Part shown: positions 1 through 15,090 of the stretch, piece by piece
Position numbering within the stretch: the stretch's first letter is position 1
Layout: each line of letters opens with the position of its first letter
From: a virus
Taxonomy: Duplodnaviria; Heunggongvirae; Uroviricota; Caudoviricetes
Length of the DNA: 15,090 nucleotides
Virus record (IMG/VR): IMGVR_UViG_2778261639_000008
Span: 1-15,090 of that record
Direction: 5' to 3' (one strand)
Position numbers and translations under genes: made by a program
The notes under the pieces: generated by a model
What the model was told of the DNA's origin: nothing
Seen by the model: only the letters and a program-made list of their open reading frames with translations
Databases searched by the model: none

Positions 1-97
1 CGGCCGTTTGGTAGTACTTAGGATAGCCAACCATCAGATGCTGCATTTGCATAGTGCAATCTCCCCTTACTTATCCGGAGGCAATTGCAATATCTCT

Positions 98-268
98 GTG
101 AACTTACACACTTTGTTTTACAAAGGAGTTTTTTTGTTCATCGCGATTTATATCGCGGCGCTACTGGCATATACCGCTCTAAACCGGACGCTTTGCGAAG
201 CGTCAATAGGACAGGGAGATGTGCAAGTGGCGGCAAAGTTTGCCTACGAAGCTAAGGAGAGTCGCTAA
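98..268 (+). CDS. hok: Hok/Gef-family type I toxin (small membrane host-killing peptide)
   Basis: The C-terminal 50 residues of the frame (FYKGVFLFIAIYIAALLAYTALNRTLCEASIGQGDVQVAAKFAYEAKESR) match the Hok/Gef pattern: one hydrophobic helix, then R-x-LCE, G, VAA and AYE, as in Hok [28 protein letters not shown]. The frame is open to the window edge, so the start is uncertain: GTG 98, TTG 113 (gives a 52-aa Hok-sized product) or TTG 134 (5 nt after the AAAGGAG at 122-128). Stop TAA 266-268 is followed directly by a GC hairpin. Confidence 0.6.
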   Translation: MNLHTLFYKGVFLFIAIYIAALLAYTALNRTLCEASIGQGDVQVAAKFAYEAKESR

Positions 269-272
269 ATCA

Positions 273-297
273 GGGCGGGGGTAACACCCCGCCTTTC
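273..297 (+). terminator. GC-rich hairpin immediately after the hok-like stop (mRNA 3' stem-loop or weak intrinsic terminator)
   Basis: GGCGGGG (274-280) pairs with CCCCGCC (287-293) around a 6-nt loop, followed by TTTCT. The U-tract is short, so this may be a stabilising 3' structure rather than an efficient terminator. Confidence 0.45.
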
Positions 298-330
298 TGA
301 CTGCGATCCACAGCCTGAGCACCTTTAAAC

Positions 331-360
331 GCCGCTCCTTCGGGGGCGGCTTTTCTTTAT
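331..360 (+). terminator. Rho-independent terminator
   Basis: GCCGCTCC (331-338), TTCG tetraloop, GGGGCGGC (343-350): an 8-bp stem with one G-U wobble, followed by TTTTCTTTAT. Confidence 0.65.
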
Positions 361-489
361 CTGCTGTTACCTCTCGCACAATCTTTTGTCTTATCTCATC
401 AAAAAACCATAATGGCATCTGCCACGGACAGGTAGCGAACTGCCTGTTTAACTGACTTTTAGCCATTGCATTACTCTTTGTGATGTTGA

Positions 490-523
490 GCCATTCCGCC
501 CCCGGAGTGGCTTTTTTTATTTG
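490..523 (+). terminator. Rho-independent terminator
   Basis: GCCATTCCG (490-498), loop CCCC, CGGAGTGGC (503-511): a 9-bp stem with one G-U wobble, followed by TTTTTTTATTTG. Confidence 0.65.
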
Positions 524-600
524 TACTACACGCCAGCGGTAACGCTGTTTTTGATCCTCCTTTTTCCTCGCTACGCTGCAAGCCTCACAAAGGGGGCGTT

Positions 601-1146
601 GTGACCATAAAAATAAGTAAACGAGATGATGTGTTTGCAAAGCTGGTAGCCAGTGAGCGGGAAGCGCCTGGATTCAGCTATGCAAAATCTCGCAACAGAG
701 AATACAAAGGTTTCAATGATGATTATCAGGCTGAAAAGTTGCTTAAAGACAACGAGATACAACAGGCCGTTAGCGTTTATCGAAAACACATCATTGCTAA
801 AGATATTGTTGGCAGACAGGAGGCATTGATTGACCTTTCAGCCCGTTTCCGTGCGCCAGACTCAACAGCGGTAATGCTGGAGTTACAGGCACTGGAGAAG
901 TTGCGCCTTGAACCGGAAGTGTTCCGTAGCCGTCTGGCGGCAATCGACACCAGAGCCATAAAAAATATCAAACGCACAAAGCATGGCTGGCAGGTTGAAG
1001 GGCTTGATAAATCACACCTTGCGGCGCGGATACTTTCGCTGGCGGGTGTTGATGTAAGTAAACCAATAACTGACGAGGGCAAACGAATCGCGCGAGACAC
1101 GCTGACTGAAATCTACAGGGATATTGGCGGCGATGACAGCGATTGA
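601..1146 (+). CDS. terS: Putative terminase small subunit
   Basis: 181-aa ORF with GTG start 6 nt after the AGGGGG Shine-Dalgarno at 591-596. Its stop overlaps the start of the large terminase gene (ATG 1133), the usual terS-terL arrangement. Assignment rests on position and size; I did not recognise a specific family from the sequence. Confidence 0.55.
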   Translation: MTIKISKRDDVFAKLVASEREAPGFSYAKSRNREYKGFNDDYQAEKLLKDNEIQQAVSVYRKHIIAKDIVGRQEALIDLSARFRAPDSTAVMLELQALEKLRLEPEVFRSRLAAIDTRAIKNIKRTKHGWQVEGLDKSHLAARILSLAGVDVSKPITDEGKRIARDTLTEIYRDIGGDDSD

Positions 1147-2542
1147 AATAACGCCAGAGAACGACCTAGAGCGCCGTAATTACTGGCTTTCTGACAAAAA
1201 GAAAATGTCAGAGTGGCGGCGAACAATGCGAGAGCTGACCACTAAGCCGCACCGCGTAAAGTGTCTGCGTGGTGGTCGTGGTTCCAGTAAATCATGGCGC
1301 ATTGCTGAGGCGTTAATTGAGTTGACTGTGCGTTATGACCTTCGAATTCTCTGTTTGCGTAGGGTACAGAAATCTATAGACGCGTCATCGCATAAGCTAC
1401 TTAGCGACACGATACGCCGTCTTGGTTATGAGTCTGAATTCACGATAACGCAGAACAGCATAAAGGCTAAATCTGGCGCGGAATTCAGGTTTTTGGGCTT
1501 TCAGTCAAATCTCGACAGCATTAAATCCATTGAAGGTGTGGATATTTGCTGGGTGGAGGAAGCACACGCGATATCTGCTGAGGCATGGGAAACGCTTGCA
1601 CCAACACTACGCCGTGAAGGGGCTGAGTTGTGGATTACCTTTAACCCGGCTTTCGCATGGGATGAAACATACGTTCGTTTCGTGCTCAACGCGGAGGATG
1701 ACTGGTTTGTAGAGGAGGTGAACTGGTATCACAACCCGTACTTTAATTCGACTCTGGATAAAGAGCGACGCTACACCCTGAAATATTACCCGGATAAATA
1801 CGACAACATCTGGAATGGTGTTCCTGTCAGTGATTTACCGGGTGCTGTCGTCAATCGTGGTCATCTTGAAAGGCTGGTGGTGTCGCCTGATTCAAAACTG
1901 GCGAAAGCCTGTCGAACTGGCGTTAAAACAGTGGTGCTCGATGTTGCCGATGAAGGTGATGATGATTCGGTGTTGTCTTTCTTTGACGGGCGTTTTTTGT
2001 ACCGTATGGAGCGATTACAGGCACGTGACACTGTTCAGCTAGCGCAGCAGGCGTTAAAGCTGGCAGCAGAGGAAGGTTGTTCCGTACTGATTTATGACTC
2101 TGTAGGCGTTGGTTCAGGTGTTAAAGGCGAACTTAACAAATACGAAGATTCAGACATTGAATTTCGTAAGTTTGTGGCTCAGGGCGAAGTGTTGCGCAAA
2201 AAATCCCGCTATCGCGGGGGGAGAGCCAACGAAGATACTTTTCACAACCTACGTGCTCAAGCGTGGTGGGCGTATCGTGACGCGGTTAATGACTCTGTGC
2301 GGTGGATGGAAACGGGAATTATGCCGCCAGATGGCTTATTTGCTATTTCAGACCAGATACCACGCCGATATCTCGATCGCATCCTTTCTGATTCTACTGG
2401 CGTCATGTGGGAAACCACGCCAGAAGACAAGATAAAAATTGAAGCAAAACCAAAGGTTAAAAAACGGCTGGGTGTGTCCACGGACTATGCCGACGCCATA
2501 TTCCCCCATCTGGTACGCATGAAATCAGGAATTATAGAATGA
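1133..2542 (+). CDS. terL: Terminase large subunit (PBSX / phage_term_2-type ATPase-nuclease)
   Basis: Deviant Walker A box LRGGRGSSKSW near the N-terminus and a Walker B-like acidic motif (VDICWVEEAH), with a C-terminal acidic nuclease region (VLDVADEGDDDS); 469 aa. The first ATG is at 1133, overlapping the terS stop; the track start at 1124 is a TTG. Ends in an ATGA overlap with the portal gene. Confidence 0.9.
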   Translation: MTAIEITPENDLERRNYWLSDKKKMSEWRRTMRELTTKPHRVKCLRGGRGSSKSWRIAEALIELTVRYDLRILCLRRVQKSIDASSHKLLSDTIRRLGYESEFTITQNSIKAKSGAEFRFLGFQSNLDSIKSIEGVDICWVEEAHAISAEAWETLAPTLRREGAELWITFNPAFAWDETYVRFVLNAEDDWFVEEVNWYHNPYFNSTLDKERRYTLKYYPDKYDNIWNGVPVSDLPGAVVNRGHLERLVVSPDSKLAKACRTGVKTVVLDVADEGDDDSVLSFFDGRFLYRMERLQARDTVQLAQQALKLAAEEGCSVLIYDSVGVGSGVKGELNKYEDSDIEFRKFVAQGEVLRKKSRYRGGRANEDTFHNLRAQAWWAYRDAVNDSVRWMETGIMPPDGLFAISDQIPRRYLDRILSDSTGVMWETTPEDKIKIEAKPKVKKRLGVSTDYADAIFPHLVRMKSGIIE

Positions 2543-3891
2543 CGAACAAAACCAGCTTAATTCCCACTGAGGGAATTCTAACAAAAGAGGGCTTACAGCC
2601 TGCCAGCTATAACATTGACAGCTACGTAACCATGATGGAAAGCGTGTCACATGGTGTTAAAGGTGCTGCCGGGATGGGTTCGCCAACGGCAAATCGGATG
2701 AAGGCCAGAGCCGCAGAGGGAAAAATTCCACTGGTGGCGGCTCTGGCTGGCGAAACATCCGGGATAGGCTGGCGCATCATCAGCGAACCGGTTGCTGCAG
2801 CGATGCTAAACGGGTTCGATATCATCACCGATAAACCGGAGGATGATAAAAAAATAAAGCAACTGTTTGATGATATGCGCATCTGGCAGAGCGTCGAACG
2901 CGCCACTGTGCTTAAACGTCATCAGGGCTGGTCGGTGCTGGTCATGGGTGATGATTGGGTTAGAAGCCATGGCGCAAACTGGATTACACCGTCAAATGAT
3001 TGGTTTTCTGATTATAACGACCCGCTTTTCGGTCTGCCGGAAGGCTGGCGTATTCAGCTTAAAAGCCCGATTGGTGGCGAGGTTTTTATTGAGCAAGACG
3101 ATTCACTACTTTTTGGCGATCCAGAGTACCAGCCGATTTACGGTAGTGCAGGTGTCGAATTTGGCGAGCCGGTTCTCTGTAAACCTTATGCATCATTGCA
3201 GCGTCTTGGCCTGTCTCATGAGTTAATCATCAGCATTCTGTCCCTGTCCGTACAGGATATTTATAAAAAAGATGAACTTGCAGAGGATTTAAAGTCAGCG
3301 AAAGGTGAAGCTATGGTGGCGCGTCGTCTGGCTGGTATCGCTGCTACCAGGCATTTGAATGACATGGTGGCAATTGATAAAGATGAAGAAATTACCCGTT
3401 TACAGTCCAGTATGACGGGAACCGCAGACCTTGTTGATATGGCTATCAAGCTGGTGTGCGCCGAAACAGGTTTCCCGGTATCAATGCTGGCTGAACGGCG
3501 GTCAGGACTGTCTAACAGTGATACCAGCGCAGATGCACAATGGCAAAACCTTGTTTCTCACATCACCACCAATGACATTATCCCGGCACTTAAAAAGCTG
3601 ACGTTGCGCTATTTGGGCGTAAAAGCTGACTTTATTCCTAACAAATCTCAGGGGCAGATTGACCGAGAGGTAGACAGGGACAAGAAAGTAGCGGAAACCG
3701 CGCAGATTTATTACCAGATGAGAGCCATCACCAGCGAAGAAGCCAGGGCAACAGCGAAGGAAACAGCCGCCGTAACACTCCTGACTGAGGCAGCGCCAGC
3801 AACAGGCACTATTGATGACCAGAATGACAAGGATTTGAACCAGAACGATACCGAAACCAGCAATAGTGAGGCCAATAATGCCGAAAAGTGA
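2539..3891 (+). CDS. Portal protein
   Basis: 450-aa ORF directly after terL and directly before a Mu F-like gene (SPP1-like order terL, portal, gp7-like). The acidic, low-complexity C-terminal tail (DDQNDKDLNQNDTETSNSEANNAEK) is typical of portals. I think it is the DUF1073-type portal family but cannot verify this without a search. Confidence 0.75.
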   Translation: MTNKTSLIPTEGILTKEGLQPASYNIDSYVTMMESVSHGVKGAAGMGSPTANRMKARAAEGKIPLVAALAGETSGIGWRIISEPVAAAMLNGFDIITDKPEDDKKIKQLFDDMRIWQSVERATVLKRHQGWSVLVMGDDWVRSHGANWITPSNDWFSDYNDPLFGLPEGWRIQLKSPIGGEVFIEQDDSLLFGDPEYQPIYGSAGVEFGEPVLCKPYASLQRLGLSHELIISILSLSVQDIYKKDELAEDLKSAKGEAMVARRLAGIAATRHLNDMVAIDKDEEITRLQSSMTGTADLVDMAIKLVCAETGFPVSMLAERRSGLSNSDTSADAQWQNLVSHITTNDIIPALKKLTLRYLGVKADFIPNKSQGQIDREVDRDKKVAETAQIYYQMRAITSEEARATAKETAAVTLLTEAAPATGTIDDQNDKDLNQNDTETSNSEANNAEK

Positions 3892-5233
3892 ACCACGTTA
3901 TGACGCTGGTTATCCACTGGCTATAGAACTGGTTTACGCGCAAAAGCTGGCTGATAACACCCGGCTTTTTTGTAAATGGGTTCGCGAAGCCTGTTTAAAG
4001 ACTTACCGGGCAATCGGTAAATCCGGCGCACTTCTTAATACTGATGCGGCTGATGGTAAAGATGTATCCGTTGATGATGTGCTGGGGGATTTTATTGCCG
4101 CTGCAACGGTTAAAAAAGTGCGCGTTTTTATCAAGCAACGGGCGGGTAAAAACTACTCCCGCATGACGCGTGAGCAACAAGAAAGGCTTATACGGTCTGT
4201 AACTCAGGAGTTATTGCCTGATGCGTCCATTTTCCTCAAAGCAATACCGGCATTATTAAAAGACGGGGAGTTTGGCGCGGTTCCGGCGTATATCGTCAGT
4301 GAAGTCAGAAGGCAGGCAGGTATAAATCTGGCTAAAGATTTTGCCAGAGTAACAAACACTGAGCCTGATACTTATATTCGCATCATTAACCGCACAGCCG
4401 ATGACATACAGAGCGCTATCGCAAACGGGAGTTTTGGTTTCACCGATGAATACTGGCAAAGCTATTACCAGCGCTTCCGCGTTGATGGCGTAAGCCTGAT
4501 TGACCTGAAAAAAGGGTTGCCAGCCACGCCAGACACGGCGGGGGCAGTCTCCGAACAGGTAGCAAAGTTATCTGAATCACTACGCACAACCAGTGTTATC
4601 CCGTCACTGCCAGCGATAAATACCACCACAACGCAACTTACCGATTCTGCTCTGGATGATTTCAGACTCATCATTAAAGCCGCCGCAAATGTTGACCTTG
4701 CGCCGGGTATAACTATTCCGCATGAGAACATGGCAGACCTGATAGCGGTCGATATTTATGACGGTGATAAAAAGCTATTGCAGCAAACCGCCGACTGGTT
4801 AACCGAGAGCATGGGACGTATGGAGAATGTTTCTGATGAAGCACTTCAACGCGGGATTAACACAGTACAACAGGGGTTACGCGAGGGGCGCGGCGTCGAT
4901 TACATCGCTAATAAGCTGGCTGATGAAATGGAGATACCTTTCCGGCGAGCCCGTAACGTTGCCCGTAATGAGATTGGTAATCAGGCATGGAACCTTGAGG
5001 AAGCCAATGCACGTATTGCCGGGATGAGCATATACCGCTGGCGGGGCATGTTAGACGAACGCGAGCGAAAAGAGCATGTTGGGCGCGAAGGTAAGGCATA
5101 CACGCCGACCAGACCGCCACGAGACGGGAATCCGGGTCAACCTAACGGTTGCCGCTGTTTTCCTGAATGGTTGTTCTCTGCGTCGGATGTGGAAGAAGCG
5201 GAGAAAGAAATTGCAGCAAGAAACACAGGTTAA
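3878..5233 (+). CDS. Head morphogenesis protein, phage Mu F-like / SPP1 gp7 family
   Basis: The C-terminal region carries the Mu F signature (RNVARNEIGNQAWNLEEANARIAGMSIYRWRGMLDERERKEHVGREGKAY). Probable start is ATG 3878, preceded by GAGG at 3868-3871; the track start at 3866 is a GTG. Overlaps the portal 3' end by 14 nt. Confidence 0.85.
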   Translation: MPKSEPRYDAGYPLAIELVYAQKLADNTRLFCKWVREACLKTYRAIGKSGALLNTDAADGKDVSVDDVLGDFIAAATVKKVRVFIKQRAGKNYSRMTREQQERLIRSVTQELLPDASIFLKAIPALLKDGEFGAVPAYIVSEVRRQAGINLAKDFARVTNTEPDTYIRIINRTADDIQSAIANGSFGFTDEYWQSYYQRFRVDGVSLIDLKKGLPATPDTAGAVSEQVAKLSESLRTTSVIPSLPAINTTTTQLTDSALDDFRLIIKAAANVDLAPGITIPHENMADLIAVDIYDGDKKLLQQTADWLTESMGRMENVSDEALQRGINTVQQGLREGRGVDYIANKLADEMEIPFRRARNVARNEIGNQAWNLEEANARIAGMSIYRWRGMLDERERKEHVGREGKAYTPTRPPRDGNPGQPNGCRCFPEWLFSASDVEEAEKEIAARNTG

Positions 5234-6224
5234 CGTTGATGCAATAAAACAATGGGAGATAACCCCGGAAGGTTATCTCCAGATTGATATCCCTATAGCC
5301 CGTCCGGGCGTACTGGTTTATGACCGCAATCGCGGTGATGCATTCACGGCAAAAGAGTACCGCTCAGCCGATGAATTGTTTAACCAGGACTCAATGAATA
5401 CCTTAATCGGCAAGCCTGTTACGGTGTCACATCCTCGTAATGGTCTGGTGACGTCAAAAAATTACCGGGCTGTCAGTGCTGGTGTGGTTACTGCCGTAAT
5501 GCGTCAGGGCGATGAATTGGTAGCCCGCGCTCTGGTTCAGGATGAGAGATCCATTCGCCTGATTCAGCAGGACAAAAGATTACGCGGGGCGTCGGCTGGC
5601 TACCAGTGTGACGAAAAGCCCAAACAAACGGGACGAGCCCCAGACGGGCAAGAGTTTGACACGGTGCAGAAGGGTATTAACTACAACCACCTGAGCATAG
5701 TGCGCAACCCACGGGTAAAGACAGCAACATTCAATCTGGACGGTGAACCGATGGAATTAGAAGAAGCGTTAGCCAAAATCGAACAACTGGAAGCGGATAA
5801 AAAAACGCTCACCAGCGACCTTAGCACGGCGCGTGGCGACTTGCTCAAAGCAAACAACCGCTTGGTAAATATGGATTCAGCCAGCAACGAAGCCTACGAG
5901 CGCGGCGTTACTGACGGTCGTCAGGAACATCAGCTTAAAGAAACAGCTAAACGACTGAACATCAATACCGACAGCCTGGGCGATATCAGTCTCGTTAAGC
6001 AGGCCATCATCCGTAAGGCAAATCCAGAAGTGAACATGGATAGCTGGAGCGATGAACAGGTTGATGTTGCGTTATCAATGGCGCTGGTGGCTTGCGGTAA
6101 AAAGTTTGAGCAAAAGCCGCGTAATCCACGCATCAACAACGATGAATCAGGTGCAGGCAAAAGTAATGATGCGCACAGTGATTATCAGTCCCGCATGTTT
6201 GGCAAAAAAGAGGCCGCAAAATAA
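5187..6224 (+). CDS. Putative scaffold / prohead core protein (DUF2213-like)
   Basis: Sits between the Mu F-like gene and the capsid gene. The C-terminal third is coiled-coil-like and charged (ELEEALAKIEQLEADKKTLTSDLSTARGDLLKANNRL), as in scaffolding proteins. The track ORF begins at 5076 inside the Mu F gene; the likely start is ATG 5187 or TTG 5211, the latter preceded by GGAG. Confidence 0.6.
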   Translation: MWKKRRKKLQQETQVNVDAIKQWEITPEGYLQIDIPIARPGVLVYDRNRGDAFTAKEYRSADELFNQDSMNTLIGKPVTVSHPRNGLVTSKNYRAVSAGVVTAVMRQGDELVARALVQDERSIRLIQQDKRLRGASAGYQCDEKPKQTGRAPDGQEFDTVQKGINYNHLSIVRNPRVKTATFNLDGEPMELEEALAKIEQLEADKKTLTSDLSTARGDLLKANNRLVNMDSASNEAYERGVTDGRQEHQLKETAKRLNINTDSLGDISLVKQAIIRKANPEVNMDSWSDEQVDVALSMALVACGKKFEQKPRNPRINNDESGAGKSNDAHSDYQSRMFGKKEAAK

Positions 6225-7015
6225 TGCAGACCACAATTAAAGGTGATTTTGACGCGGGATTGCCCGGTGATTTAGCTGTCCTGCCGTCTTTTCGTTCCTC
6301 TGCTCGCGTATCTTCCCGCCGCGCTGGTGGTGAAGTTGCGCCCGGTGATGCAGTAAAACTCACGTCAGGTAACGATTCGACCTGTGTTGCATTACCTGAT
6401 GGTGGTGATGTTACTGATGCCATCGGCATTGCGGTTACTGCACATTCCAACATGTCAGCCATGCCGGGATTTGGCAGTAACACCCGTATCGGCGTTGTCA
6501 CTATCAATTGCCCGATTGGTATCGTTGAAAATGGTCCGATCCGCGTAGCGGTAAAATCGGGTGAATCCCCGAAAGTGGGTGATTTGGCAATCCCGAAAGG
6601 CCGAAACGTCACTACCGGCTATATGGAATGGGGTGTTGCCAATTCTGGCGATAAAAGTCGTTTTCGCTTCGAATCAAACACTCAGCGCGGCGGTACAGCA
6701 ATTGTGATGGTTGTCGATGGTGAATTGCTGAGTGTGGGTTTTCCACATGAAACGCCTGTAATGGGTGTATCAGTTTCACCTAAAACCGCATCAAAGGCGG
6801 CTGGTGGTACTCAACAGCTAACACCAACCGTTACGCCATCGGGCGCAACAAATAAAGCAGTCACTTATCAGACCAGTAATGCAAATGTCGCAACTGTAGA
6901 CGCAAATGGCCTTGTCACTGTTAAAGCAGGGGCTACAACCGGGCAAACCGCGACAATTACGGTACGAACTGAAGACGGTGGTTTCACTGATACCGCTGTA
7001 ATTACTGTTAGCTAA
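6224..7015 (+). CDS. Capsid decoration-like protein with C-terminal bacterial Ig-like (Big_2) domain
   Basis: The C-terminal ~85 aa (VSVSPKTASKAAGGTQQLTPTVTPSGATNKAVTYQTSNANVATVDANGLVTVKAGATTGQTATITVRTEDGGFTDTAVITV) match the Big_2 Ig-like consensus closely. TAATG overlap with the upstream gene. Located between the scaffold and major capsid genes. Confidence 0.7.
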   Translation: MQTTIKGDFDAGLPGDLAVLPSFRSSARVSSRRAGGEVAPGDAVKLTSGNDSTCVALPDGGDVTDAIGIAVTAHSNMSAMPGFGSNTRIGVVTINCPIGIVENGPIRVAVKSGESPKVGDLAIPKGRNVTTGYMEWGVANSGDKSRFRFESNTQRGGTAIVMVVDGELLSVGFPHETPVMGVSVSPKTASKAAGGTQQLTPTVTPSGATNKAVTYQTSNANVATVDANGLVTVKAGATTGQTATITVRTEDGGFTDTAVITVS

Positions 7016-7032
7016 CAGGGAACCTCCGAAAT

Positions 7033-7971
7033 ATGAATGAGAAATATTTAGCCGCGTTGATGGCGCAGCTTTTTACCGAAGCTCAGGTAACTGGCGCAAT
7101 GCCGGGAGTTAACACCGACGAACAAGGGTTAATTTTTGCCCGCGACCTGATATCCATGTCTAAAGATGTTTACATGGAAGAAATGCCCGCCCCCGTAGCG
7201 TTAACTATGTTCCAGCAGGAGCCGGGGATTAACGAAGGGGCAAAGTGGGCGGGGTATCGCATGTACTCGGCACAAGGAATGGCAAAAATCATGGCGGCAT
7301 TCGGTACTGATATGCCGATGATGAGCGCTAAAGGCCGGGAATACTTCGCGCTGATGTACGATATTGGTCTCGGCTATGGCTATACCTATAGCGACGTTAT
7401 GGCAGCGGCAATGTCAGGTACGCCGCTTGATAACATGCTGGCGCTGAATACCCGCGAAGCGCATGAGCGCACAGTTTCAAATCTGTTGTGGCGTGGCAAT
7501 AAGGAATACCAGATTATCGGCTTTATCGAACATCCGAATATTCCTCTGGTAGCAGTAGCCGGTGCATGGGCGACGGCTGACGGTGATAAAATTTGCGATG
7601 ATGTTTCAGCGATTATCGCCGCAGTGAACACCACCAAAATCTACGAAGTAAATGAGTTCCATATGCCGTCTAAGGCATGGGCGCGAATTCAGGGGCTACG
7701 CCTTAGCGGTACGATCGGCACAGTCCTGTCATTCCTGCGAACCTCTTACCCGGAAGTGACTTTCCGCAAAAACTCCGATCTGGATGATGACGGTATTTGT
7801 ATTGCGCTGGCGAATAACCGCCGCCACTTTGCACAGGCTACCCCGGTATTGTTCCGTCAGTTGCCAGTGCAGCGTAGTGGGCTTGACCTGTCTATTCCTT
7901 GCCTGTCGCGCTCCGCTGGCGTAATCGTCCGTGCGCCGCTGGCTGCTGCTAAATCTTCTAAGGTAATTTAA
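7033..7971 (+). CDS. Putative major capsid protein
   Basis: 312-aa ORF at the position of the major capsid gene in scaffold, decoration, capsid order. I believe it is DUF2184-type, which typically accompanies DUF2213, but that needs an HMM search. Confidence 0.6.
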   Translation: MNEKYLAALMAQLFTEAQVTGAMPGVNTDEQGLIFARDLISMSKDVYMEEMPAPVALTMFQQEPGINEGAKWAGYRMYSAQGMAKIMAAFGTDMPMMSAKGREYFALMYDIGLGYGYTYSDVMAAAMSGTPLDNMLALNTREAHERTVSNLLWRGNKEYQIIGFIEHPNIPLVAVAGAWATADGDKICDDVSAIIAAVNTTKIYEVNEFHMPSKAWARIQGLRLSGTIGTVLSFLRTSYPEVTFRKNSDLDDDGICIALANNRRHFAQATPVLFRQLPVQRSGLDLSIPCLSRSAGVIVRAPLAAAKSSKVI

Positions 7972-7974
7972 GTC

Positions 7975-8229
7975 ATGGCTGATAAAGAAAAAGCGTTTCT
8001 GACCAACACCACACAAGCGCCGATTCATATCGGTGCAAAAAACAGTGAAGGGACTGTTATCACCATTTCGATTGCTCCGCTTGCCGCTGTAGAAGTTGAT
8101 ATAGCAACGCTGCAAATCGGCGGTGTTAAGCAGTTTATTGATGAAGGCTGGTTAAAAGTAGTTTCAGCCGCAGAAGCCAAAAAGCTCAACAAAGAGCACG
8201 ATGGCGTAGTTGAATCCGACGACGAGTAG
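7975..8229 (+). CDS. Small phage structural/head-associated protein, function unknown
   Basis: 84-aa ORF starting 4 nt after the capsid stop, with an acidic C-terminus; co-directional and tightly packed with its neighbours. Confidence 0.5.
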   Translation: MADKEKAFLTNTTQAPIHIGAKNSEGTVITISIAPLAAVEVDIATLQIGGVKQFIDEGWLKVVSAAEAKKLNKEHDGVVESDDE

Positions 8230-8238
8230 GGGCACAGC

Positions 8239-8598
8239 ATGACGGTAAACGATTGGCTTGCCATTCTGCTACCGGGGTTATCACTTGATGAGGGCGCTAT
8301 TAGCGCCCTTTCTTCTCAATGTGAGCGGCTATACGACCTTCGAGCCGCAGCGGATTACGGTTATGACGTAGAGCGCCTCAAAGCGCTGTATGTTGCCGCT
8401 AATCTCGCCCCGATAGCTGTTGAGGGAATAAGCGCCAGTGTTCGCGGGGTGGCAAGCCGCCGTGAAGGGAAAGTTGCAATGACCTTTACTGAGTCAGCAC
8501 AAAAGGCAGGCTGGCAGGGTACTACGTGGGGTGAGGAATTCTCAGACGCTATAGGCACATTGTCTGGTGGTTGTATTCTCATCGGTCATGCCGATTAG
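8239..8598 (+). CDS. Putative head-tail connector/adaptor protein
   Basis: 119-aa ORF at the head-completion position, with GGGG 8 nt upstream of the ATG. Family membership not verified. Confidence 0.5.
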   Translation: MTVNDWLAILLPGLSLDEGAISALSSQCERLYDLRAAADYGYDVERLKALYVAANLAPIAVEGISASVRGVASRREGKVAMTFTESAQKAGWQGTTWGEEFSDAIGTLSGGCILIGHAD

Positions 8599-8719
8599 CA
8601 GAATATTATCCTGATAAATGCGATTGGCCAGCCTTGGCGCCCACGGTAAAAAAATGGTTAAAGCGCACTTTCGCAGATGAATATTCCAGATTTTTAAAAA
8701 TGAATTCGGAGTTTGATCT

Positions 8720-9193
8720 ATGCGTGGTGGTGCAACGTTAGATACAAAAGGTTTTGACCGGGTTTTACGCCAGCGAATCAAGGGATTGGCAGGCGTAAAA
8801 CTGACTGTTGGTATTCACCGGGGAAAAACCAATAACGGCGTTGATGTGGCGCTTTATGGGGCATGGAATAACTTTGGTACTAAAAACGCGATGGGCTGGG
8901 AATTAATACCCGAACGTCCGTTTATGAGATTTGCATCAGACCGCATAGCCGACTGGATGAGGTCAAGCGAGTACAGAGATATTTTACGTGACGTAGCGCT
9001 TGGAAGAATAACACCTCAGCAAGCTATAGCCAGAATCGGCGCTAAAGCCGTGTCGATTACCCGCAAGACTATAGCTGACTCCGCACTATACAAACCTAAC
9101 TCAGATATCACCATCGCCCGGAAAGGGAGCACTAAACCGCTGATACATAGCGGGGTACTCATTCAGACCGTAAATTACAGGGCTTTTTCATGA
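8720..9193 (+). CDS. Putative head closure / neck protein
   Basis: 157-aa ORF with GGAG at 8708-8711; first in-frame start after the stop at 8714. Its stop overlaps the next gene start (ATGA). Confidence 0.5.
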   Translation: MRGGATLDTKGFDRVLRQRIKGLAGVKLTVGIHRGKTNNGVDVALYGAWNNFGTKNAMGWELIPERPFMRFASDRIADWMRSSEYRDILRDVALGRITPQQAIARIGAKAVSITRKTIADSALYKPNSDITIARKGSTKPLIHSGVLIQTVNYRAFS

Positions 9194-9543
9194 GACGATT
9201 AATCAAATTCTGGCAACCACTCCCTATTGAAATTGTGGGCGGCATGGTTCGCCAGGCATATTCAGAACAGAAAACAGCATTTCTCAGCATGCAGCCTGTC
9301 GATGGTGGCGGCTCCTTCCGTGCGTATCTTGCAGCACGTAAGCCTCAAGACTACATGGAGGCTATCGGGGAAGCTGATTTAGCAGTAACCGAGGAAGGCG
9401 AACATAACGGCGCTATCGTGCATTGTGCTGGCAAATATTATGAGGTGGTACAACGTCAGGAATGGCAGAACGGCGTCATTAGCCACTACGAGTATTTGTT
9501 ATTTGGCATGAAAGAAAAAGACGCATTAGAGTTGGTGGAATAA
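9190..9543 (+). CDS. Putative tail completion / neck protein
   Basis: 117-aa ORF translationally coupled on both sides (ATGA upstream, TAATG downstream). Confidence 0.5.
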   Translation: MRRLIKFWQPLPIEIVGGMVRQAYSEQKTAFLSMQPVDGGGSFRAYLAARKPQDYMEAIGEADLAVTEEGEHNGAIVHCAGKYYEVVQRQEWQNGVISHYEYLLFGMKEKDALELVE

Positions 9544-10325
9544 TGAGTATCTATACGGTTAAATTAATGACCGTTTTTGGGGAGGTCGATTATTCAGATT
9601 ACCATGCTGAGAAAGCGACTTTCACCGACAACGGAAACAGCAAGGATATCTTATTCACGCCATATAACGGGCGAGATCCATCTTTCATTACTTCGCTCAT
9701 TCTGGATGATGGTAACGGCAACAGCATTACCATTCCGGCAAATTTCCGCCTTGATGTGGGAAATGTCGTTAAGTTTCCCAAAGGGACGTTAAAAGAGACT
9801 GACGCTCAGGCTACACCATTGATATTAAGTGGCGCACCTTATCTTGCTATGGTTAGGCTTCGTCAGGCATTTCTTGAGCTAACAGGCGATAAACCACTAT
9901 ACGCCCAGCAAAAGCTACCAGAGCCTAAAGACCCGTTTACCGCCATTCATTTGCTTTCGTCAGCGCGTGAGCCGCAACCATTCGCCAAAACGTGGGACGG
10001 CGACTACAGGGTGTATCACTATAACTGTGCCGCTCAAATTATTGCGATTCGCTCATCTGATGACGCTCAGGCATATCTAGAAAACTTTCTTTATGAGATC
10101 GATTCAACTGAGGGGGAATTCTGGCAGTTTGATAACAACTGTTCTATTGACCGCTCAGGCGATTTCGAGAATAGCTCACCTCTAATTGATAACCTCGTTT
10201 ATCAGCAAATGGCACAGGTGACATTAACCCTGCAATTTGTTTTCCAGCACTACAAAAAAGAGCGCTGGATTGATAGCGCAACAGTGAAAGCGAACGAGGT
10301 TACGTTCCATATCAAGGGTGCATAA
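9543..10325 (+). CDS. Phage structural protein upstream of the sheath gene (tail terminator/sheath initiator candidate), function unknown
   Basis: 260-aa ORF immediately preceding the sheath gene (stop TAA at 10323-10325, next ATG at 10326). Confidence 0.5.
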   Translation: MSIYTVKLMTVFGEVDYSDYHAEKATFTDNGNSKDILFTPYNGRDPSFITSLILDDGNGNSITIPANFRLDVGNVVKFPKGTLKETDAQATPLILSGAPYLAMVRLRQAFLELTGDKPLYAQQKLPEPKDPFTAIHLLSSAREPQPFAKTWDGDYRVYHYNCAAQIIAIRSSDDAQAYLENFLYEIDSTEGEFWQFDNNCSIDRSGDFENSSPLIDNLVYQQMAQVTLTLQFVFQHYKKERWIDSATVKANEVTFHIKGA

Positions 10326-11684
10326 ATGGCGAATTTAAGCAGGCTTTTTAGTGTGAAAATTGGACGGCAAACAACAGCCGCCCAATATGGCGTTTTCGGT
10401 GTGGGGATTATCCTTGCACCGGGCGCAGCGTTTTTTGGTTTGAAGTATTCGACCTATGAAAGCGCAAAAGTAGAAAATTTCAAAGACCTGTACCGGGTTT
10501 ACACCAGTGCTGATGATGCGATTTCTGACGGCGTGAGTGGTGATAACCTGCTGGCGGTTCAGGCTTATTTCTCGCAGAGTCCATCACCAGACACACTCGT
10601 TGTAGGCGATTTTTCCGCAGCCTACAGCAAGGCCATGATTAAATTGACTGATGTTCCGGTTGTTGGTGCTCCAGCGGGCATAAAAGCGACCATTGGCTAT
10701 GTAAAGGGCGATGAATATCGTTATGCGAAATTTAACGGCACTGCATGGTCAGGAAGCACAGGGGTAGCGACTGATATCGTTGCTGATTCTGGCGCAGCAG
10801 GTCAGTTTCTTGTCGATGGGCGCATTGTTTATCTGGAAGGTGCGGAAGTCGTTCACAAATCATCTGTCGTACTGTCGGCGGCAGCTAGCCAGGCAATTGC
10901 AGCCATAAAGAACCAGTATAACAAGTTCTTCATGCTCATGACCCCATCACGCGACCTTTCAATTCAGAAAGTGATTGCTGACTGGACTGAATCGCAGATT
11001 GATAAAATGGCAGTATTTATTGATGACTATTCATCGCCAACATGGGCGACGGACAACATCACTAAATATATCTTTGAAAAAAATATTGCAGGTTCGTTTG
11101 CAGTATCAACCAAACGAGAAAAGAACTTCCTTGATGCTGCTCTGGCTGGTCGCTGTCTGGTTATGCAACCGGGCTCAGAAACATGGGCGCTTAAGACGCT
11201 TAATGCTGTACAAGCCGATGACTTTACCGAAACTGATTACCAGAAAATCAAGGCACTCAACGGTAACACGTTTGAGGATTACGGTTCCGGCATCACGGTA
11301 ACTTATCCGGGTACGTGTGGTGACGGTGAGTCGATTGAGGTTGTGCGCTTTGCTTACTGGCAGGCTGACCGCATGCAAAAAGACCTCGCAACGCTCTTTG
11401 TGAACCGTAACAAAGTTGGTCACGACATGCCGGGGTATGAAGTCGTTTGTAACAAAATGGAAAGCTCGCTTAAAGCAGGTCAGACTGCTGGCGGTATTCT
11501 GGAAAACTTTACCGACGAAAACGGAGATTATGTCCGTGGATATGAGGTTATCCGTCCAACAATGGCAGAAGTCAGCGCGACCCAGCGCATCAAAGGCGAC
11601 CTGACCGTTAAATTCAGATTCTATCTTCGCTACGCCATCAAGCATGTAGATGCTGTTGGTTCCGCACTGACCTACGGGATTTAA
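10326..11684 (+). CDS. Putative tail sheath protein
   Basis: 452-aa ORF immediately upstream of a ~140-aa tube-sized gene, a chaperone and the tape measure gene: the canonical contractile-tail order. Possibly DUF3383-type, not verified. Confidence 0.65.
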   Translation: MANLSRLFSVKIGRQTTAAQYGVFGVGIILAPGAAFFGLKYSTYESAKVENFKDLYRVYTSADDAISDGVSGDNLLAVQAYFSQSPSPDTLVVGDFSAAYSKAMIKLTDVPVVGAPAGIKATIGYVKGDEYRYAKFNGTAWSGSTGVATDIVADSGAAGQFLVDGRIVYLEGAEVVHKSSVVLSAAASQAIAAIKNQYNKFFMLMTPSRDLSIQKVIADWTESQIDKMAVFIDDYSSPTWATDNITKYIFEKNIAGSFAVSTKREKNFLDAALAGRCLVMQPGSETWALKTLNAVQADDFTETDYQKIKALNGNTFEDYGSGITVTYPGTCGDGESIEVVRFAYWQADRMQKDLATLFVNRNKVGHDMPGYEVVCNKMESSLKAGQTAGGILENFTDENGDYVRGYEVIRPTMAEVSATQRIKGDLTVKFRFYLRYAIKHVDAVGSALTYGI

Positions 11685-11686
11685 TT

Positions 11687-12115
11687 ATGTATTTAGGCAA
11701 TATGTCCTCAAAAGACTGGCTGATTACCGTAGGCGTTGTCCCGGTAATTGGCCTGGCGAAAGACAGCAACATCATCGTTGAAGTACCAGACGACCAGATT
11801 ACTGTTTCATCTGGCATCGGCGGTGACTGGTCATTTATTGAGAATCCTAGCGAGGAAGGCTCAGTAACATTCACCACGCAGCGTAATTCCCCGGTAAATA
11901 CCGCGCTGGCGCTGATGCAAAAAACAAAGGCCGTCATCCCTGTAACCGTAACCAATACGCGCAATCTTTCCGTGCACCGGCTGGGCTATGCGATGTTTGC
12001 CCGTCAGCCGTCTGATGGTGCAAATAACGGCGTCGGAGCGCAAACGCTGGAATGGAAACTCCTGACGGGTGAGCTTGATTCAACGATTCTTGGGGTGAAT
12101 TTAACCAATGGATGA
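11687..12115 (+). CDS. Putative tail tube protein
   Basis: 142-aa ORF between the sheath and chaperone genes; size and position fit a tube protein. Confidence 0.6.
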   Translation: MYLGNMSSKDWLITVGVVPVIGLAKDSNIIVEVPDDQITVSSGIGGDWSFIENPSEEGSVTFTTQRNSPVNTALALMQKTKAVIPVTVTNTRNLSVHRLGYAMFARQPSDGANNGVGAQTLEWKLLTGELDSTILGVNLTNG

Positions 12116-12593
12116 TTCAATCAAACACGTAGAAATTAACGGGCAAAAATACTGCATCATCCGTATGAGCGCCTTTGATGCAGTTCACTTCAACTTGCGT
12201 GTAGCTGAAATTCTGGCGAAACATGGTATCAGCCAGGTAGAAAGCATCCTTTCTATGTCGTCGAAAATCTTCGGTATGCTCAACCGCGAAGACCACGACG
12301 AATTGCTGTTTACGCTGCTTTCAAAGTCACGCGCCCAACTGGTGGATAACGGCGAATTTCTGGATTCTTGGGATGTAGTTAACACCAATTTCACCGCAGC
12401 AAACATTGCTGATGTGTATCTGGTGGCGCTTGAGTGCCTTAAATTGTCCATTCTTCCGGTAACAGCAGGGTTAAAAAAAAATATTGGGCTGGACACAGCG
12501 GCAACAATGCAGGGAGCCATGCGGCAACTGTTCAACGCCTTGCTGAAAACCTTGACCGAACCATCCGCACAGAGCTCGTCATCTGGCGAGTGA
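12108..12593 (+). CDS. Tail assembly chaperone, short (G-like) form
   Basis: 161-aa ORF immediately upstream of the tape measure gene, overlapping the tube gene stop. Contains the A9 slippery run at 12473-12481. Confidence 0.65.
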   Translation: MDDSIKHVEINGQKYCIIRMSAFDAVHFNLRVAEILAKHGISQVESILSMSSKIFGMLNREDHDELLFTLLSKSRAQLVDNGEFLDSWDVVNTNFTAANIADVYLVALECLKLSILPVTAGLKKNIGLDTAATMQGAMRQLFNALLKTLTEPSAQSSSSGE

Positions 12594-12724
12594 TTGAAAG
12601 CGGCCTGATTAGCTACGATGCCGTAGCGTCAGGCCGCGCCTCCTTCGATTCCATTATGAGAGCCTCCGCCGTTATCCAGTTCGATAACGCGGTTCAACAC
12701 GCGCTTAGTAAGGTGAAAAAATGA
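12108..12724 (+). CDS. Tail assembly chaperone, predicted -1 frameshift (GT-like) extended form
   Basis: The -1 frame is open from 12443 to the TGA at 12722-12724 with no start codon near its 5' end, and it is entered exactly at the A AAA AAA heptamer within the A9 run (12473-12481). The extension reads ...YWAGHSGNNAGSHAATVQRLAENLDRTIRTELVIWRVIESGLISYDAVASGRASFDSIMRASAVIQFDNAVQHALSKVKK and ends overlapping the tape measure ATG at 12721. Confidence 0.55.
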
Positions 12725-14676
12725 CAGACCAGTCAGCCGATCTCGTAACGAAAATTGACGTAATCCCCGAACTGGAGGGATTAAACAGTTTTGACGCAGC
12801 CATAGAGCGCGCAATTGCCAAAGTAAACCAGCTTGACGCAGCCATTAAGCGCGTTAACAACCTGAAACCCGCCAGCCCATATGCGCCAGCCAGTACCGCC
12901 AGTGCGCCATCTGTAGCAACAACGGCAGCAGTAGCGACAATAGCCGCCACAGGCGCAAATCTGGTTAGCCGGACGCCATTAGCCGATACAGTTAGAAAAG
13001 AGGCTCAGAAGCTCGCACGTGCAGCCGTAGAGGGTGCGGGGAATGGCGTTGCCGGATTATTACCGCCACCAGTACGTCAATTTGCTGGTGGAGGAGGTGG
13101 TTTAATGTTGCCACCTCCGGGCGGAGCTAATTGGTCTGCTGGTCGTGCTGGTGGTTTAGTCGATCCAAATGCCGGTAATCCATTTACCCGATACGATACA
13201 TCTATCAAAAGTTTCTCCGGGGAAGCGCTGGAGGCAAAAAAGAAACCTGTTGCAGAGGGTGCAGAGAAAGCGACACGCAATCCATTTGGTGTTGATAGCA
13301 TGCTGGCTGGCGCGGGGCTGACGGCGGGTATTGTCGCCGCTGGTAATGCTCTGGCAGACAGCCTTGACTCTATCCAACGCCAACAGGCACAAATTGCGCG
13401 TCTGGCACAGACTACAGGGGATGCAAAAGAGGCATTTTTTGCCCTTAACGCGGCGGCAAGCGACGTTAGAAGCGACAGCGGGGCGTTTATCTCCACCTAT
13501 ACGAATATGGCGACAGCAACACAAAAATTAGGGTTGTCGCAGGAAAGAACAATAACCGCAACACAGGGGCTTGTTGGGGCGCTGCAATTAGGCGGGGGCA
13601 GTGCTGATGCAGTAAATGCAGCGCTTTATCAAATGGGGCAGGCATTTTCATCAGACCGTTTCGGCGGCGATGAATTCCGCTCATTCATGGAAGCGATAGG
13701 GACGATGGCACCGAAAGTAGCTGAGGCGTTTGGTACAGACGTTAAAGGACTCCGCGAAATGTCAGAAAAAGGGAAGCTGACCTCAGAAACCATGATTAAA
13801 GCCTTTGAAAAGCTGGCGGCGAGCAACATAGATTTGTTGAAAAAACAGGGCTGGACGTGGGGGCAGACAATGACAGTCATGAAAAATGACTGGCAAGCCT
13901 TCTTAGCTCAGGCAACCATCGGCGGCGAGTGGCAAAAATTTACCGATTGGGCGGCAAATACCTTAATTCCACTGGCGAGGAAAGCCGAGAAAGAAGTTGC
14001 AGAGTTTTGGTCTACCCTGGCTGATGAAAGTAAAACAGCTATTCTCATTGGGATTCTTGGCGCTGTTGGCGCGGCATTTACCGCGCTGGCAGTTCCGGTT
14101 ATGGCGGCGCTTTGGCCTTTCCTCGCCATTGGCGCGGCTGTCTGGCTGGTCTATGAGGCTTTTGTTGAGTGGAAAGCTTGGTTGAATGGTGAAGGTGGAA
14201 CCATCTTTGATAGCTTATTCGGTAGTTTTGATGAATTTGAAAAGCGTTATCCAAATTTAATATCTGCTCTCAGAACTATTGTTAAATTAGCAAGCAAAGC
14301 AGCGATAAGCGTTAATTCTGCGACAAAAGACGATGAAAGTGATGGTGTTTTCATTGATGCGATTGAAAGTCCGTTGTCAGCAGTGGTTAATGGCTTATAT
14401 AACTTAACACCATTAGCCCCCACAGTTAGAGCGCTAAGTGGGTTAAATGATATGTTTGACCTGAATCCTCTACCGGGCATAGAAAACACACTAGGTTTAA
14501 TGCCTTCTTCCTCAACTACAGGGAGTCAGACCATTAGCAATAGTGGTAATAAGACTACGCACATTCATGTTAACAGTGGTAAGGAAGCCGCTGAAACTTT
14601 GAATAATATCAATGATACAGGAAACACCTACGGGAATATTGATGGTAATATTGCAGAATCGACAGGCGCGAGATAA
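12721..14676 (+). CDS. Tail tape measure protein
   Basis: 651-aa ORF downstream of the chaperone pair, with a tape-measure-type core (ATQGLVGALQLGGGSADAVNAALYQMGQAFSSDRFGGDEFRSFMEAIG), Ala/Gly/Pro-rich low-complexity N-terminal linkers, and an internal hydrophobic segment (ILIGILGAVGAAFTALAVPVMAALWPFLAIGAAVWLVY). Confidence 0.85.
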   Translation: MTDQSADLVTKIDVIPELEGLNSFDAAIERAIAKVNQLDAAIKRVNNLKPASPYAPASTASAPSVATTAAVATIAATGANLVSRTPLADTVRKEAQKLARAAVEGAGNGVAGLLPPPVRQFAGGGGGLMLPPPGGANWSAGRAGGLVDPNAGNPFTRYDTSIKSFSGEALEAKKKPVAEGAEKATRNPFGVDSMLAGAGLTAGIVAAGNALADSLDSIQRQQAQIARLAQTTGDAKEAFFALNAAASDVRSDSGAFISTYTNMATATQKLGLSQERTITATQGLVGALQLGGGSADAVNAALYQMGQAFSSDRFGGDEFRSFMEAIGTMAPKVAEAFGTDVKGLREMSEKGKLTSETMIKAFEKLAASNIDLLKKQGWTWGQTMTVMKNDWQAFLAQATIGGEWQKFTDWAANTLIPLARKAEKEVAEFWSTLADESKTAILIGILGAVGAAFTALAVPVMAALWPFLAIGAAVWLVYEAFVEWKAWLNGEGGTIFDSLFGSFDEFEKRYPNLISALRTIVKLASKAAISVNSATKDDESDGVFIDAIESPLSAVVNGLYNLTPLAPTVRALSGLNDMFDLNPLPGIENTLGLMPSSSTTGSQTISNSGNKTTHIHVNSGKEAAETLNNINDTGNTYGNIDGNIAESTGAR

Positions 14677-14686
14677 GGAATAAGCG

Positions 14687-14953
14687 ATGCCAAAAAATGA
14701 ATTTAAAAGCTTTGCAACATTCGAAACATTGATTACGCCAAAAATCATTACGATTGTATATTGGCTTGCCACGATACTACTTATCGTAGGTACTATTCTA
14801 AGCTGGTTGCAGCAGAGAGAAGGGGTAAGTATTAGCTTTGCTGTGTCACTTGTCGCAACAAGAGTTATTTTTGAGTTGATTATGGTTTCATTCAAGAATA
14901 ATGAATACCTTCGTAGAATCTGTGAGGCAGCAGAGGAAAAGAAAACAGAGTAG
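14687..14953 (+). CDS. Small two-transmembrane-helix membrane protein (moron; DUF4282-like)
   Basis: 88-aa ORF with AAGGAA 6 nt upstream of ATG 14687. Two hydrophobic helices (IITIVYWLATILLIVGTILSWL and VSISFAVSLVATRVIFELIMVSF) and a charged C-terminus. The FETLITPKIITIVYWL ... RVIFELIMVSF pattern resembles what I recall of DUF4282, unverified. Lies in an AT-rich block and is followed by a terminator. Confidence 0.6.
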   Translation: MPKNEFKSFATFETLITPKIITIVYWLATILLIVGTILSWLQQREGVSISFAVSLVATRVIFELIMVSFKNNEYLRRICEAAEEKKTE

Positions 14954-15018
14954 CCGCCAGCGGTCATGGCATGTTACCCACGCCGATAAGGTGTGAAAAT
15001 CCCCTCCACGTAGGTAAT

Positions 15019-15051
15019 GCCAGTCAGTTAAGCAACTGACTGGCTCTTTTT
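15019..15051 (+). terminator. Rho-independent terminator (perfect palindrome, potentially bidirectional)
   Basis: GCCAGTCAGTT (15019-15029), loop AAGC, AACTGACTGGC (15034-15044): a perfect 11-bp stem followed by TCTTTTT. Confidence 0.7.
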
Positions 15052-15090
15052 CGGGGCTGTGGGGTATTTCCAGGGCCTCTCCTTTACCAC

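Follow-up and report, generated by a model that had tools for sequence, protein, structure and literature searches.

In the DNA stretch analyzed here, hereafter the window (15,090 nucleotides, positions 1 to 15,090 of the IMG/VR record IMGVR_UViG_2778261639_000008, a Caudoviricetes virus), a hok-family toxin gene is followed by a spacer of about 330 bp with three hairpins and then by terS, the putative gene of the small terminase subunit. We conclude, with a probability of roughly 0.8 that includes the identity given to each hairpin, that this spacer consists of the ends of two independent units arranged head to tail. Hairpins 1 and 2 form the 3′ untranslated region (3′ UTR) of the toxin mRNA, while hairpin 3 ends a second unit that has its own promoter next to terS. 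The original prediction had taken the hairpins as a stack of three terminators acting as one barrier between the toxin gene and terS, which is not what we found, as the first two belong to the toxin mRNA and hok has its own promoter in intact relatives. The anatomy of the second unit and the existence of a short transcript of about 100 nt from it are likely. That hairpin 3 terminates within the leader of a late operon and does not close a free-standing small RNA (sRNA) gene is our tentative choice, at slightly less than even odds. The features are collected in Table 1.

All three stem-loops are present at, or a few bases from, the predicted coordinates, fold far better than shuffled sequences and recur in conserved form in some 30 distinct related prophages. 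The folding energies were −19.3 kcal/mol (z −3.85 against shuffles) for hairpin 1 with its core G274-G280 / C287-C293, −17.1 kcal/mol (z −4.36) for hairpin 2 with the stem at 331-350, and −17.4 kcal/mol (z −5.48) for hairpin 3 with the stem at 488-513 followed by T7. When the region 260-600 was folded on both strands, as the original prediction had proposed, the + strand gave z −4.9 and the − strand a weaker z −3.0. The layout of an intrinsic terminator, in which a GC-rich stem-loop is directly followed by a U-tract, was found in hairpins 2 and 3, which look like true intrinsic terminators as had been claimed, and not in hairpin 1. The terminator scan flagged hairpins 2 and 3 plus a weak fourth site at 534-552, and left hairpin 1 unflagged because just three U follow its stem. 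The description of the spacer as free of plausible open reading frames (ORFs) also held: a 145-aa ORF on the − strand (203-640) had no family match and is just 86-87 aa long in close relatives, a 19-aa + strand ORF across hairpin 3 is broken by T-run length differences in relatives, and both were rejected. The search of the whole window against Rfam 15 gave no match at gathering thresholds (best sub-threshold E 0.56 or worse), and ARAGORN found no tRNA or tmRNA in window 1-1500. Between the 3′ arm of hairpin 2 (338-349, CTTCGGGGGCGG) and the 5′ arm with the loop of hairpin 3 (496-507, CCGCCCCCGGAG) there is 92% complementarity, which is probably a by-product of GC-rich stems.

The first unit was assigned to hok from the protein, the 3′ UTR and the relatives. 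Hok was the sole family matched in three libraries, weakly in each (Pfam PF01848, E 4e-4; PHROG MokW-like, E 4e-3; NCBIfam Hok, E 2e-3), and the orthologues are named Hok/Gef by RefSeq. Judging from the sequence, the coding region may be 51 aa long and begin at the in-frame TTG 113. This codon is preceded by AAGGAGG in relatives and 51 aa is the usual length in the Hok family; RefSeq gives the 44-aa form for the orthologues. The window protein carries Asp where all relatives carry Gly (GQGD vs GQGG). On sequence grounds, hairpin 1, the element at 312-323 and hairpin 2 make up the 3′ UTR that is usual for toxin mRNAs of the hok/sok type. In the hok mRNA of plasmid R1, the tac/fbi stem between the 5′ and 3′ ends holds the full-length mRNA inert, slow 3′ trimming strips the fbi element, and the 3′-terminal stem-loop shields the truncated, active mRNA (PMC9841398). 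By analogy, hairpin 2 would terminate the transcript, pairing of the fbi-like element with the 5′ end would keep the full-length mRNA inert, and exonuclease trimming would leave hairpin 1 as the predicted protective 3′ stem-loop. The hok part of the spacer is known biology.

Relatives with an intact locus have a promoter (−10 element) and a leader beginning GGTGCTTGAGGC upstream of the hok coding region. The leader of one such relative (L001) matched 3742 plasmid records at loci annotated Hok/Gef, and the homology to plasmid hok surfaced only with a 5′ leader of this kind as the query. The predicted full-length RNA of this relative (L001:2866-3249, 384 nt) has a minimum free energy fold of −164.4 kcal/mol (z −7.0), in which the 5′ segment GGUGCUU.GAGGC pairs with AGCCUGAGCACC, the equivalent of window 312-323, and the terminator hairpin comes immediately after. 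In the fbi variants of L002, L007 and L041 the pairing is mostly kept via wobble, shifted pairs or double changes, and L041 loses part of it; hairpin 1 varies in L007 by C-G to U-A changes. Hairpin 2 is kept in every hok-bearing relative. A TATAAT on the − strand of the relatives' hok leader was seen by eye. No mok frame was identified, with no analysis aimed at mok, and the sok and mok regions are both missing from the window.

The 5′ half of the locus in the window was lost to an insertion sequence (IS). Over bases 1-115 the window shares 97-100% identity with IS copies that 1369 complete E. coli genomes carry under the annotation IS481 family transposase, and the insertion point lies just upstream of the hok ribosome-binding site. 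The IS end replaces the hok promoter, the 5′ fold-back partner (tac) and the sok region, with the toxin ORF and the 3′ UTR intact. Since these parts were removed, the 3′ elements in the window are remnants, and the fbi-like element has no partner in the window because the 5′ end of the mRNA is gone. The locus resembles the hok/sok loci of plasmid R1 and its homologues in the small, putatively Hok-like membrane peptide, the stem-loop after the stop codon, the fbi element, the terminal terminator and the match of the intact relatives' 5′ leader to plasmid hok loci. It differs from them in its prophage location beside packaging genes, in its divergent peptide with scores under the curated cut-offs, and in the replacement of promoter, tac and sok by the IS, so that the regulatory fold-back cannot form. 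The IS-truncated hok is a clean natural case of a type I toxin that has lost all of its 5′ control sequences.

The second unit starts from a sigma-70-type promoter between hairpins 2 and 3, whose hexamers and 16-17 nt spacing (TTGnnn ... CATAAT) persist although the spacer itself comes in at least eight unrelated sequences. Transcripts are predicted to start near 420 and to stop at hairpin 3. The predicted RNA fold of 420-518 has −36.9 kcal/mol (z −5.5) and includes two hairpins at 426-449 and 468-486 that the original prediction lacked; its suggestion that a small RNA could lie in the spacer thus appears to be borne out, at the level of prediction. In relatives the transcribed bodies measure 75-124 nt and fall into at least six unalignable types with a common 3′ end. 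Both sides were changed in five of the ten pairs of hairpin 3, with 94% of cells paired, a covariation that none of 500 shuffles equaled and no slid control came close to; all five double-changed pairs come from one lineage. The T6-T9 tract stands on the + strand only. No conserved −10-like repeat in the initial transcribed region was seen by eye among the relatives.

The independence of the two units follows from their distribution. Nine relatives without hok keep the block of promoter, RNA and hairpin 3, and have at the place of hok either ORFs that look like RelE/HigB or HicA/HicB types (translations read by eye) or nothing. Conversely, hok and its terminator are present in L041, from which the block is absent. 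The short-RNA unit always adjoins terS, with or without hok, and was never found elsewhere in the relatives searched. Hairpins lined up in a phage spacer can therefore be several unrelated RNA ends side by side, and two of the three here need no new biology. The predicted short RNA ending at hairpin 3 is probably an undescribed RNA of a known kind.

Table 1. Features of the spacer and its surroundings (window positions unless a locus is named).
Feature	Position	Strand	Description
IS481-family element end	1-112	−	Transposase ATG at ~52 on the − strand; junction with prophage DNA within 110-115
hok-family toxin coding region	134-268	+	44 aa from TTG 134
Hairpin 1	270-300	+	Stem-loop directly after the hok stop codon; not a terminator
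fbi-like element AGCCTGAGCACC	312-323	+	3′ partner of the hok mRNA 5′ end
Hairpin 2	331-358	+	8-bp GC stem, UUCG loop, then TTTTCTTT; intrinsic terminator of hok mRNA
Upstream promoter box CTGTTACCTCTCGC	364-377	+	Member of the GCGTTACCGCTSGC box family
Box in the short-RNA block of relatives			GTTACCTCTCG; putative protein-binding site
Sigma-70-type promoter	386-413	+	TTGTCT, 16-nt spacer, CATAAT; predicted transcription start ~420
Predicted short RNA or leader, ~100 nt	420-518	+	Variable 5′ stem-loop 426-449, A/U-rich linker, motif YTTGTGAYG, hairpin 3
Motif CTCTTTGTGA / CUCUUUGUGA	474-483	+	Complementary to 585-594 (UCACAAAGGG)
Hairpin 3	488-518	+	9-11 bp stem, conserved CCCC loop, T7 (T6-T9 in relatives)
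Non-coding leader	519-600	+	Extremely conserved, directly upstream of terS
Inverted box GCCAGCGGTAACGC	532-547	.	Forms the 14-nt palindrome CAGCGGTAACGCTG; weak fourth terminator of the scan
Target TCACAAAGGGGG	585-596	+	Overlaps the terS Shine-Dalgarno GGGGG 592-596
181-aa ORF, terS	601-1146	+	GTG start; overlaps the start of the large subunit gene
Terminase large subunit gene	1124-2542	+	Pfam Terminase_3, E 2e-28
GTTACCGCTGG box copies	366-376, 533-543, 865-875, 14957-14967; L047 15418, 29798, 33396, 41768

The preference for a late-operon leader comes from a box upstream of the short-RNA promoter. In 19 distinct short-RNA promoters the box lies 42 (41-43) nt from the −10 hexamer, and in 21 tail-fibre units it lies 43-44 nt from it. 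The motif CCAGCGGTAACGC, taken from the conserved leader, occurs 12 times in the 48-kb prophage region of the E. coli chromosome CX12 against 1.1 copies expected (up to 2 mismatches; 0 of 100 shuffles), and the 11-mer GTTACCGCTGG occurs 5 times in the same prophage against 0.6 expected (up to 1 mismatch) and 13 times in the window against 3.5 expected (up to 2 mismatches; 0 of 200 shuffles). The intergenic copies of the CX12 prophage lie before the tail-fibre gene, before the baseplate operon and before the short-RNA promoter and are kept in relatives, while inverted copies occur within the leader of terS and immediately ahead of an internal terminator of the late genes. A profile built on tail-fibre promoters also recovers the baseplate promoter along the entire length (E 0.005); its best match in the window is the inverted box 532-547 and the second best is the box 364-377. 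The box is probably the binding site of a late-gene regulator, as far as its sequence and placement go. Since the box and its spacing are common to the tail-fibre and baseplate promoters, 386-413 is probably the late promoter of the head operon. A GCGTTACCGCTSGC box about 42-44 nt upstream of a −10 hexamer is the likely signature of such promoters, and its carriers are a widespread, uncharacterised group of enterobacterial prophages with no close cultured relative. In the 5′ UTRs of the tail-fibre and baseplate units, the Shine-Dalgarno sequence is sequestered by hairpins that seem to covary (L047 33445-33475 and 41705-41740).

Under the reading of hairpin 3 as a leader terminator, 386-413 would be the late promoter of the head and packaging operon and hairpin 3 its promoter-proximal terminator. 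In a lysogen basal transcripts would end at hairpin 3 and give the short RNA, whereas during lytic growth hairpin 3 would be read through by a putative phage-controlled mechanism. The antitermination that the original prediction called for survives in part: transcription into terS probably must handle a terminator. Because the promoter lies between hairpins 2 and 3, this is at most hairpin 3 and not all three.

Two known kinds of late control were compared with this arrangement. In Stx phages the promoter PR′ is active at all times; in lysogens its transcription ends a short way downstream and thereby yields the sRNA StxS (PMC7547250). As at the lambda-type PR′-tR′ (6S RNA, StxS), a promoter just upstream of the late genes is followed about 100 nt on by a strong terminator, and a short RNA would be expected in lysogens; here too the terminator (488-518) stands between the putative late promoter (386-413) and the first late gene (terS, 601). 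In contrast to lambda, no Q gene lies beside the promoter, no Q-like protein was found among 10 ORFs, and the phage is not lambdoid. The box common to other late promoters suggests activation rather than Q loading. The late promoters of P2 and 186 (Ogr, B) and of Mu (C) depend on an activator and have a common upstream box. The present units are like them in that several late units with weak promoters of their own carry the same partly palindromic box at a fixed distance, and unlike them in having inverted box copies inside transcribed regions beside terminators. We take the GCGTTACCGCTSGC box to be unrelated in sequence to the P2 and Mu sites.

A number of observations weigh against these assignments. 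The Hok scores lie under the curated cut-offs (20.4 bits vs 22 in Pfam; 17.9 bits vs 73 in NCBIfam), and the window's hok coding region with its 3′ UTR gave no blastn match to plasmids. Against the short-RNA promoter, the tail-fibre profile is significant for the box alone (E 0.12 in L047; 0.7 and 2.5 in the window), and the tail-fibre and baseplate units have no leader terminator. Neither a Q-like nor another antiterminator was found among 10 ORFs of the CX12 prophage, nine from the putative regulatory region and one beside hok. The upstream neighbours of the short-RNA promoter are hok, toxin-antitoxin-like inserts or a divergent ERF operon, with nothing Q-like among them. As a sigma-70 match the promoter itself is fair, and it might simply drive an sRNA constitutively. 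Start site, 3′ end and read-through alike are predictions.

The strongest competitor, which we consider possible and less probable than a late-operon leader, is that hairpin 3 ends a free-standing gene for a trans-acting phage sRNA, a moron with its own constitutive promoter, and that terS is expressed from a non-canonical late promoter within 519-600, perhaps with the inverted box 532-545. The unit has the usual layout of an sRNA, with a 5′ stem-loop, an A/U-rich linker and a terminator with a long U-tract, and its 5′ bodies come in discrete unalignable types like specificity regions. The leader holds a box and is more conserved than coding sequence, with a pairwise identity of 0.83-0.95 (516-595) vs about 0.6-0.9 in successive 20-nt windows of the downstream coding sequence. 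In more distant relatives terS is expressed with no short-RNA unit, from roughly 100 nt of DNA ahead of the gene. On the other hand, inspection and the scan gave no convincing sigma-54-like or sigma-70-like promoter in 524-600, where the original prediction had allowed for a terS promoter and where the extreme conservation leaves some probability for a non-canonical one, and the inverted box is at the wrong distance from any −10-like hexamer compared with the other late units. The conserved TACGCT at 572-577 is separated by 15 nt from the nearest TTGATC. Searches of 4-15 kb of phage sequence gave no convincing trans target, and the unit never occurs away from terS, both of which speak against a free-standing sRNA. 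In the window and 13 relatives, exact complementary words of 9-14 nt gave no recurrent site; a 10-nt match of the short RNA to the terminator at 15022 was dropped, as it was not seen by eye in the type-B RNA. A motif that the distant relatives keep upstream of terS is not repeated within 4 kb.

We consider it unlikely that the short RNA, or the same segment of a read-through transcript, acts as an antisense lock on terminase translation, with 474-483 (plus 486-489) pairing with 581-594 and covering part of the terS ribosome-binding site. The 10-13 bp pairing, a sequence prediction, is nevertheless suggestive. The local duplex 474-483/585-594 has −16.3 kcal/mol (p<0.001 vs shuffles in the window) and beats shuffles in 7 of 10 RNA types, and RNAalifold predicted the helix unprompted. 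It is paired in 88.9% of cells vs 37-61% in slid controls, four of its pairs are changed on both sides, a number reached by 1 of 500 shuffles, and in L007 the extension of the motif and the leader changed in step. Against the lock, both segments are conserved by descent, so that most of the pairing adds no independent information. The +1 slid control equals the covariation score of the helix, and the structure was derived from the same sequences. Three types (the L002 type, L014 and L044) pair poorly, and the energies of whole-RNA duplexes with terS are no better than those of shuffles. The C-rich runs of the leader at 556-563 and 566-569 could also pair with the GGGGG Shine-Dalgarno sequence.

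An extension of the lock, likewise improbable, would make the short RNA a two-layer control of the packaging genes, in which the terminator stops basal transcription, 474-483 blocks terminase translation in trans or in read-through transcripts, and the variable 5′ domains are phage-specific alleles. If this were true, a phage leader RNA would keep the terminase silent. We know of no described sRNA that controls a terminase. The word 'terminase' is absent from a 2025 review of phage-derived sRNAs. The nearest parallel is the c4 antisense RNA in the immI operon of P1 and P7, with similar leader RNAs in P4 and N15. The c4 RNA is released from the leader by RNase P and blocks the ribosome-binding site of a gene further down the operon that encodes it; the c4 RNA of P1/P7 is reportedly the subject of work by Citron and Schuster in 1990, which PMC12197685 lists among its references. 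The likeness is a small RNA that shares strand and transcription unit with its proposed target, lies upstream of it and seems complementary to the region of the next gene's ribosome-binding site. Unlike c4, the RNA here has its own terminator instead of RNase P excision, the target is the terminase operon and not an antirepressor, and the pairing is only suggestive.

That the boxes at 366-376, 533-543 and 866-879 are recognition repeats of the small terminase subunit (a pac site, for which the original prediction had allowed in the spacer), with hairpin 3 and the leader conserved as a DNA site, is quite improbable. The three copies bracket the 5′ region of terS, the RefSeq orthologue of the large terminase is named 'PBSX family', from which a headful packaging type would be inferred, and the leader is conserved at the DNA level. 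Hairpin 4 (534-547) was rejected as an RNA structure, since the changes in relatives are not compensatory; the palindrome therefore looks like a DNA site and not an RNA hairpin. However, the same box stands at a fixed distance from the −10 hexamer of tail-fibre and baseplate units far from terS, so that a transcription factor fits better, and the covariation of the hairpin 3 stem points to selection at the RNA level. The palindrome CAGCGGTAACGCTG (534-547) has a second copy, 93% identical, at 866-879 inside terS, 332 nt downstream, and the two copies bracket the 5′ region of terS, as some pac sites do.

The model of one barrier of three tandem terminators in a late operon running from the toxin gene to the head genes, crossed by antitermination, has in its favor that the three hairpins stand in series on the + strand upstream of terS, and is very improbable given that hairpin 1 has no U-tract, that the first two hairpins go together with hok and are missing from relatives without it, that hok has its own promoter with a divergent early operon or variable inserts upstream of it, and that a promoter lies between hairpins 2 and 3.

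From base 110 onward the window shows homology, at a DNA identity of 79-83%, with prophages of three complete E. coli chromosomes, namely CX08 and CX12, whose matches are identical, and ECONIH4, and about 40 more homologous loci were found in Raoultella, Leclercia, Klebsiella, Buttiauxella and viral contigs. The gene order in the E. coli prophages is the Hok/Gef-family gene, a spacer of about 330 bp, the 181-aa ORF, the large terminase, the portal and Mu-F-like head genes. The 181-aa ORF was taken as terS from its position only and had no family match in Pfam, PHROGs or NCBIfam. The Mu-F-like head gene, a sheath-type tail and ERF/Ref genes mark the phage type, which is not lambdoid. Near and distant DNA searches of phage records gave one IS-related match and nothing else, and the closest terminase among isolated phages has less than 45% identity, so that there is no characterised relative from which the regulation could be borrowed.

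Upstream of hok the relatives have variable toxin-antitoxin inserts and the divergent ERF/Ref operon, and no late genes. Small inserts recur in a hot spot 0.3-1 kb upstream of terS, in the slot that separates it from the divergent ERF operon (L021, L022, L044, L041 and L005); according to the relative, the insert is hok, a RelE/HigB-like or HicA/HicB-like pair, or a small membrane protein (translations read by eye). Downstream of the tape-measure gene and an 88-aa ORF, still inside the late operon, a strong terminator GCCAGTCAGTTAAGCAACTGACTGGC with a T-run is preceded by an inverted box (window 14957-15044); its position is kept in the CX12 prophage (L047 15350-15430), where the hairpin sequence is different. 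The orthologue of the ORF at 2539-3891 bears the RefSeq name 'anti-CBASS protein Acb1 family protein', which looks like a mis-annotation; the ORF matches Pfam Phage_portal_3 (E 8e-21). Finally, a 14-nt inverted repeat, GCATTGCCTGTTAC, much longer than expected by chance, joins the type-B short-RNA body to the Ref gene 3.4 kb away (L001 ~113 and 3320).

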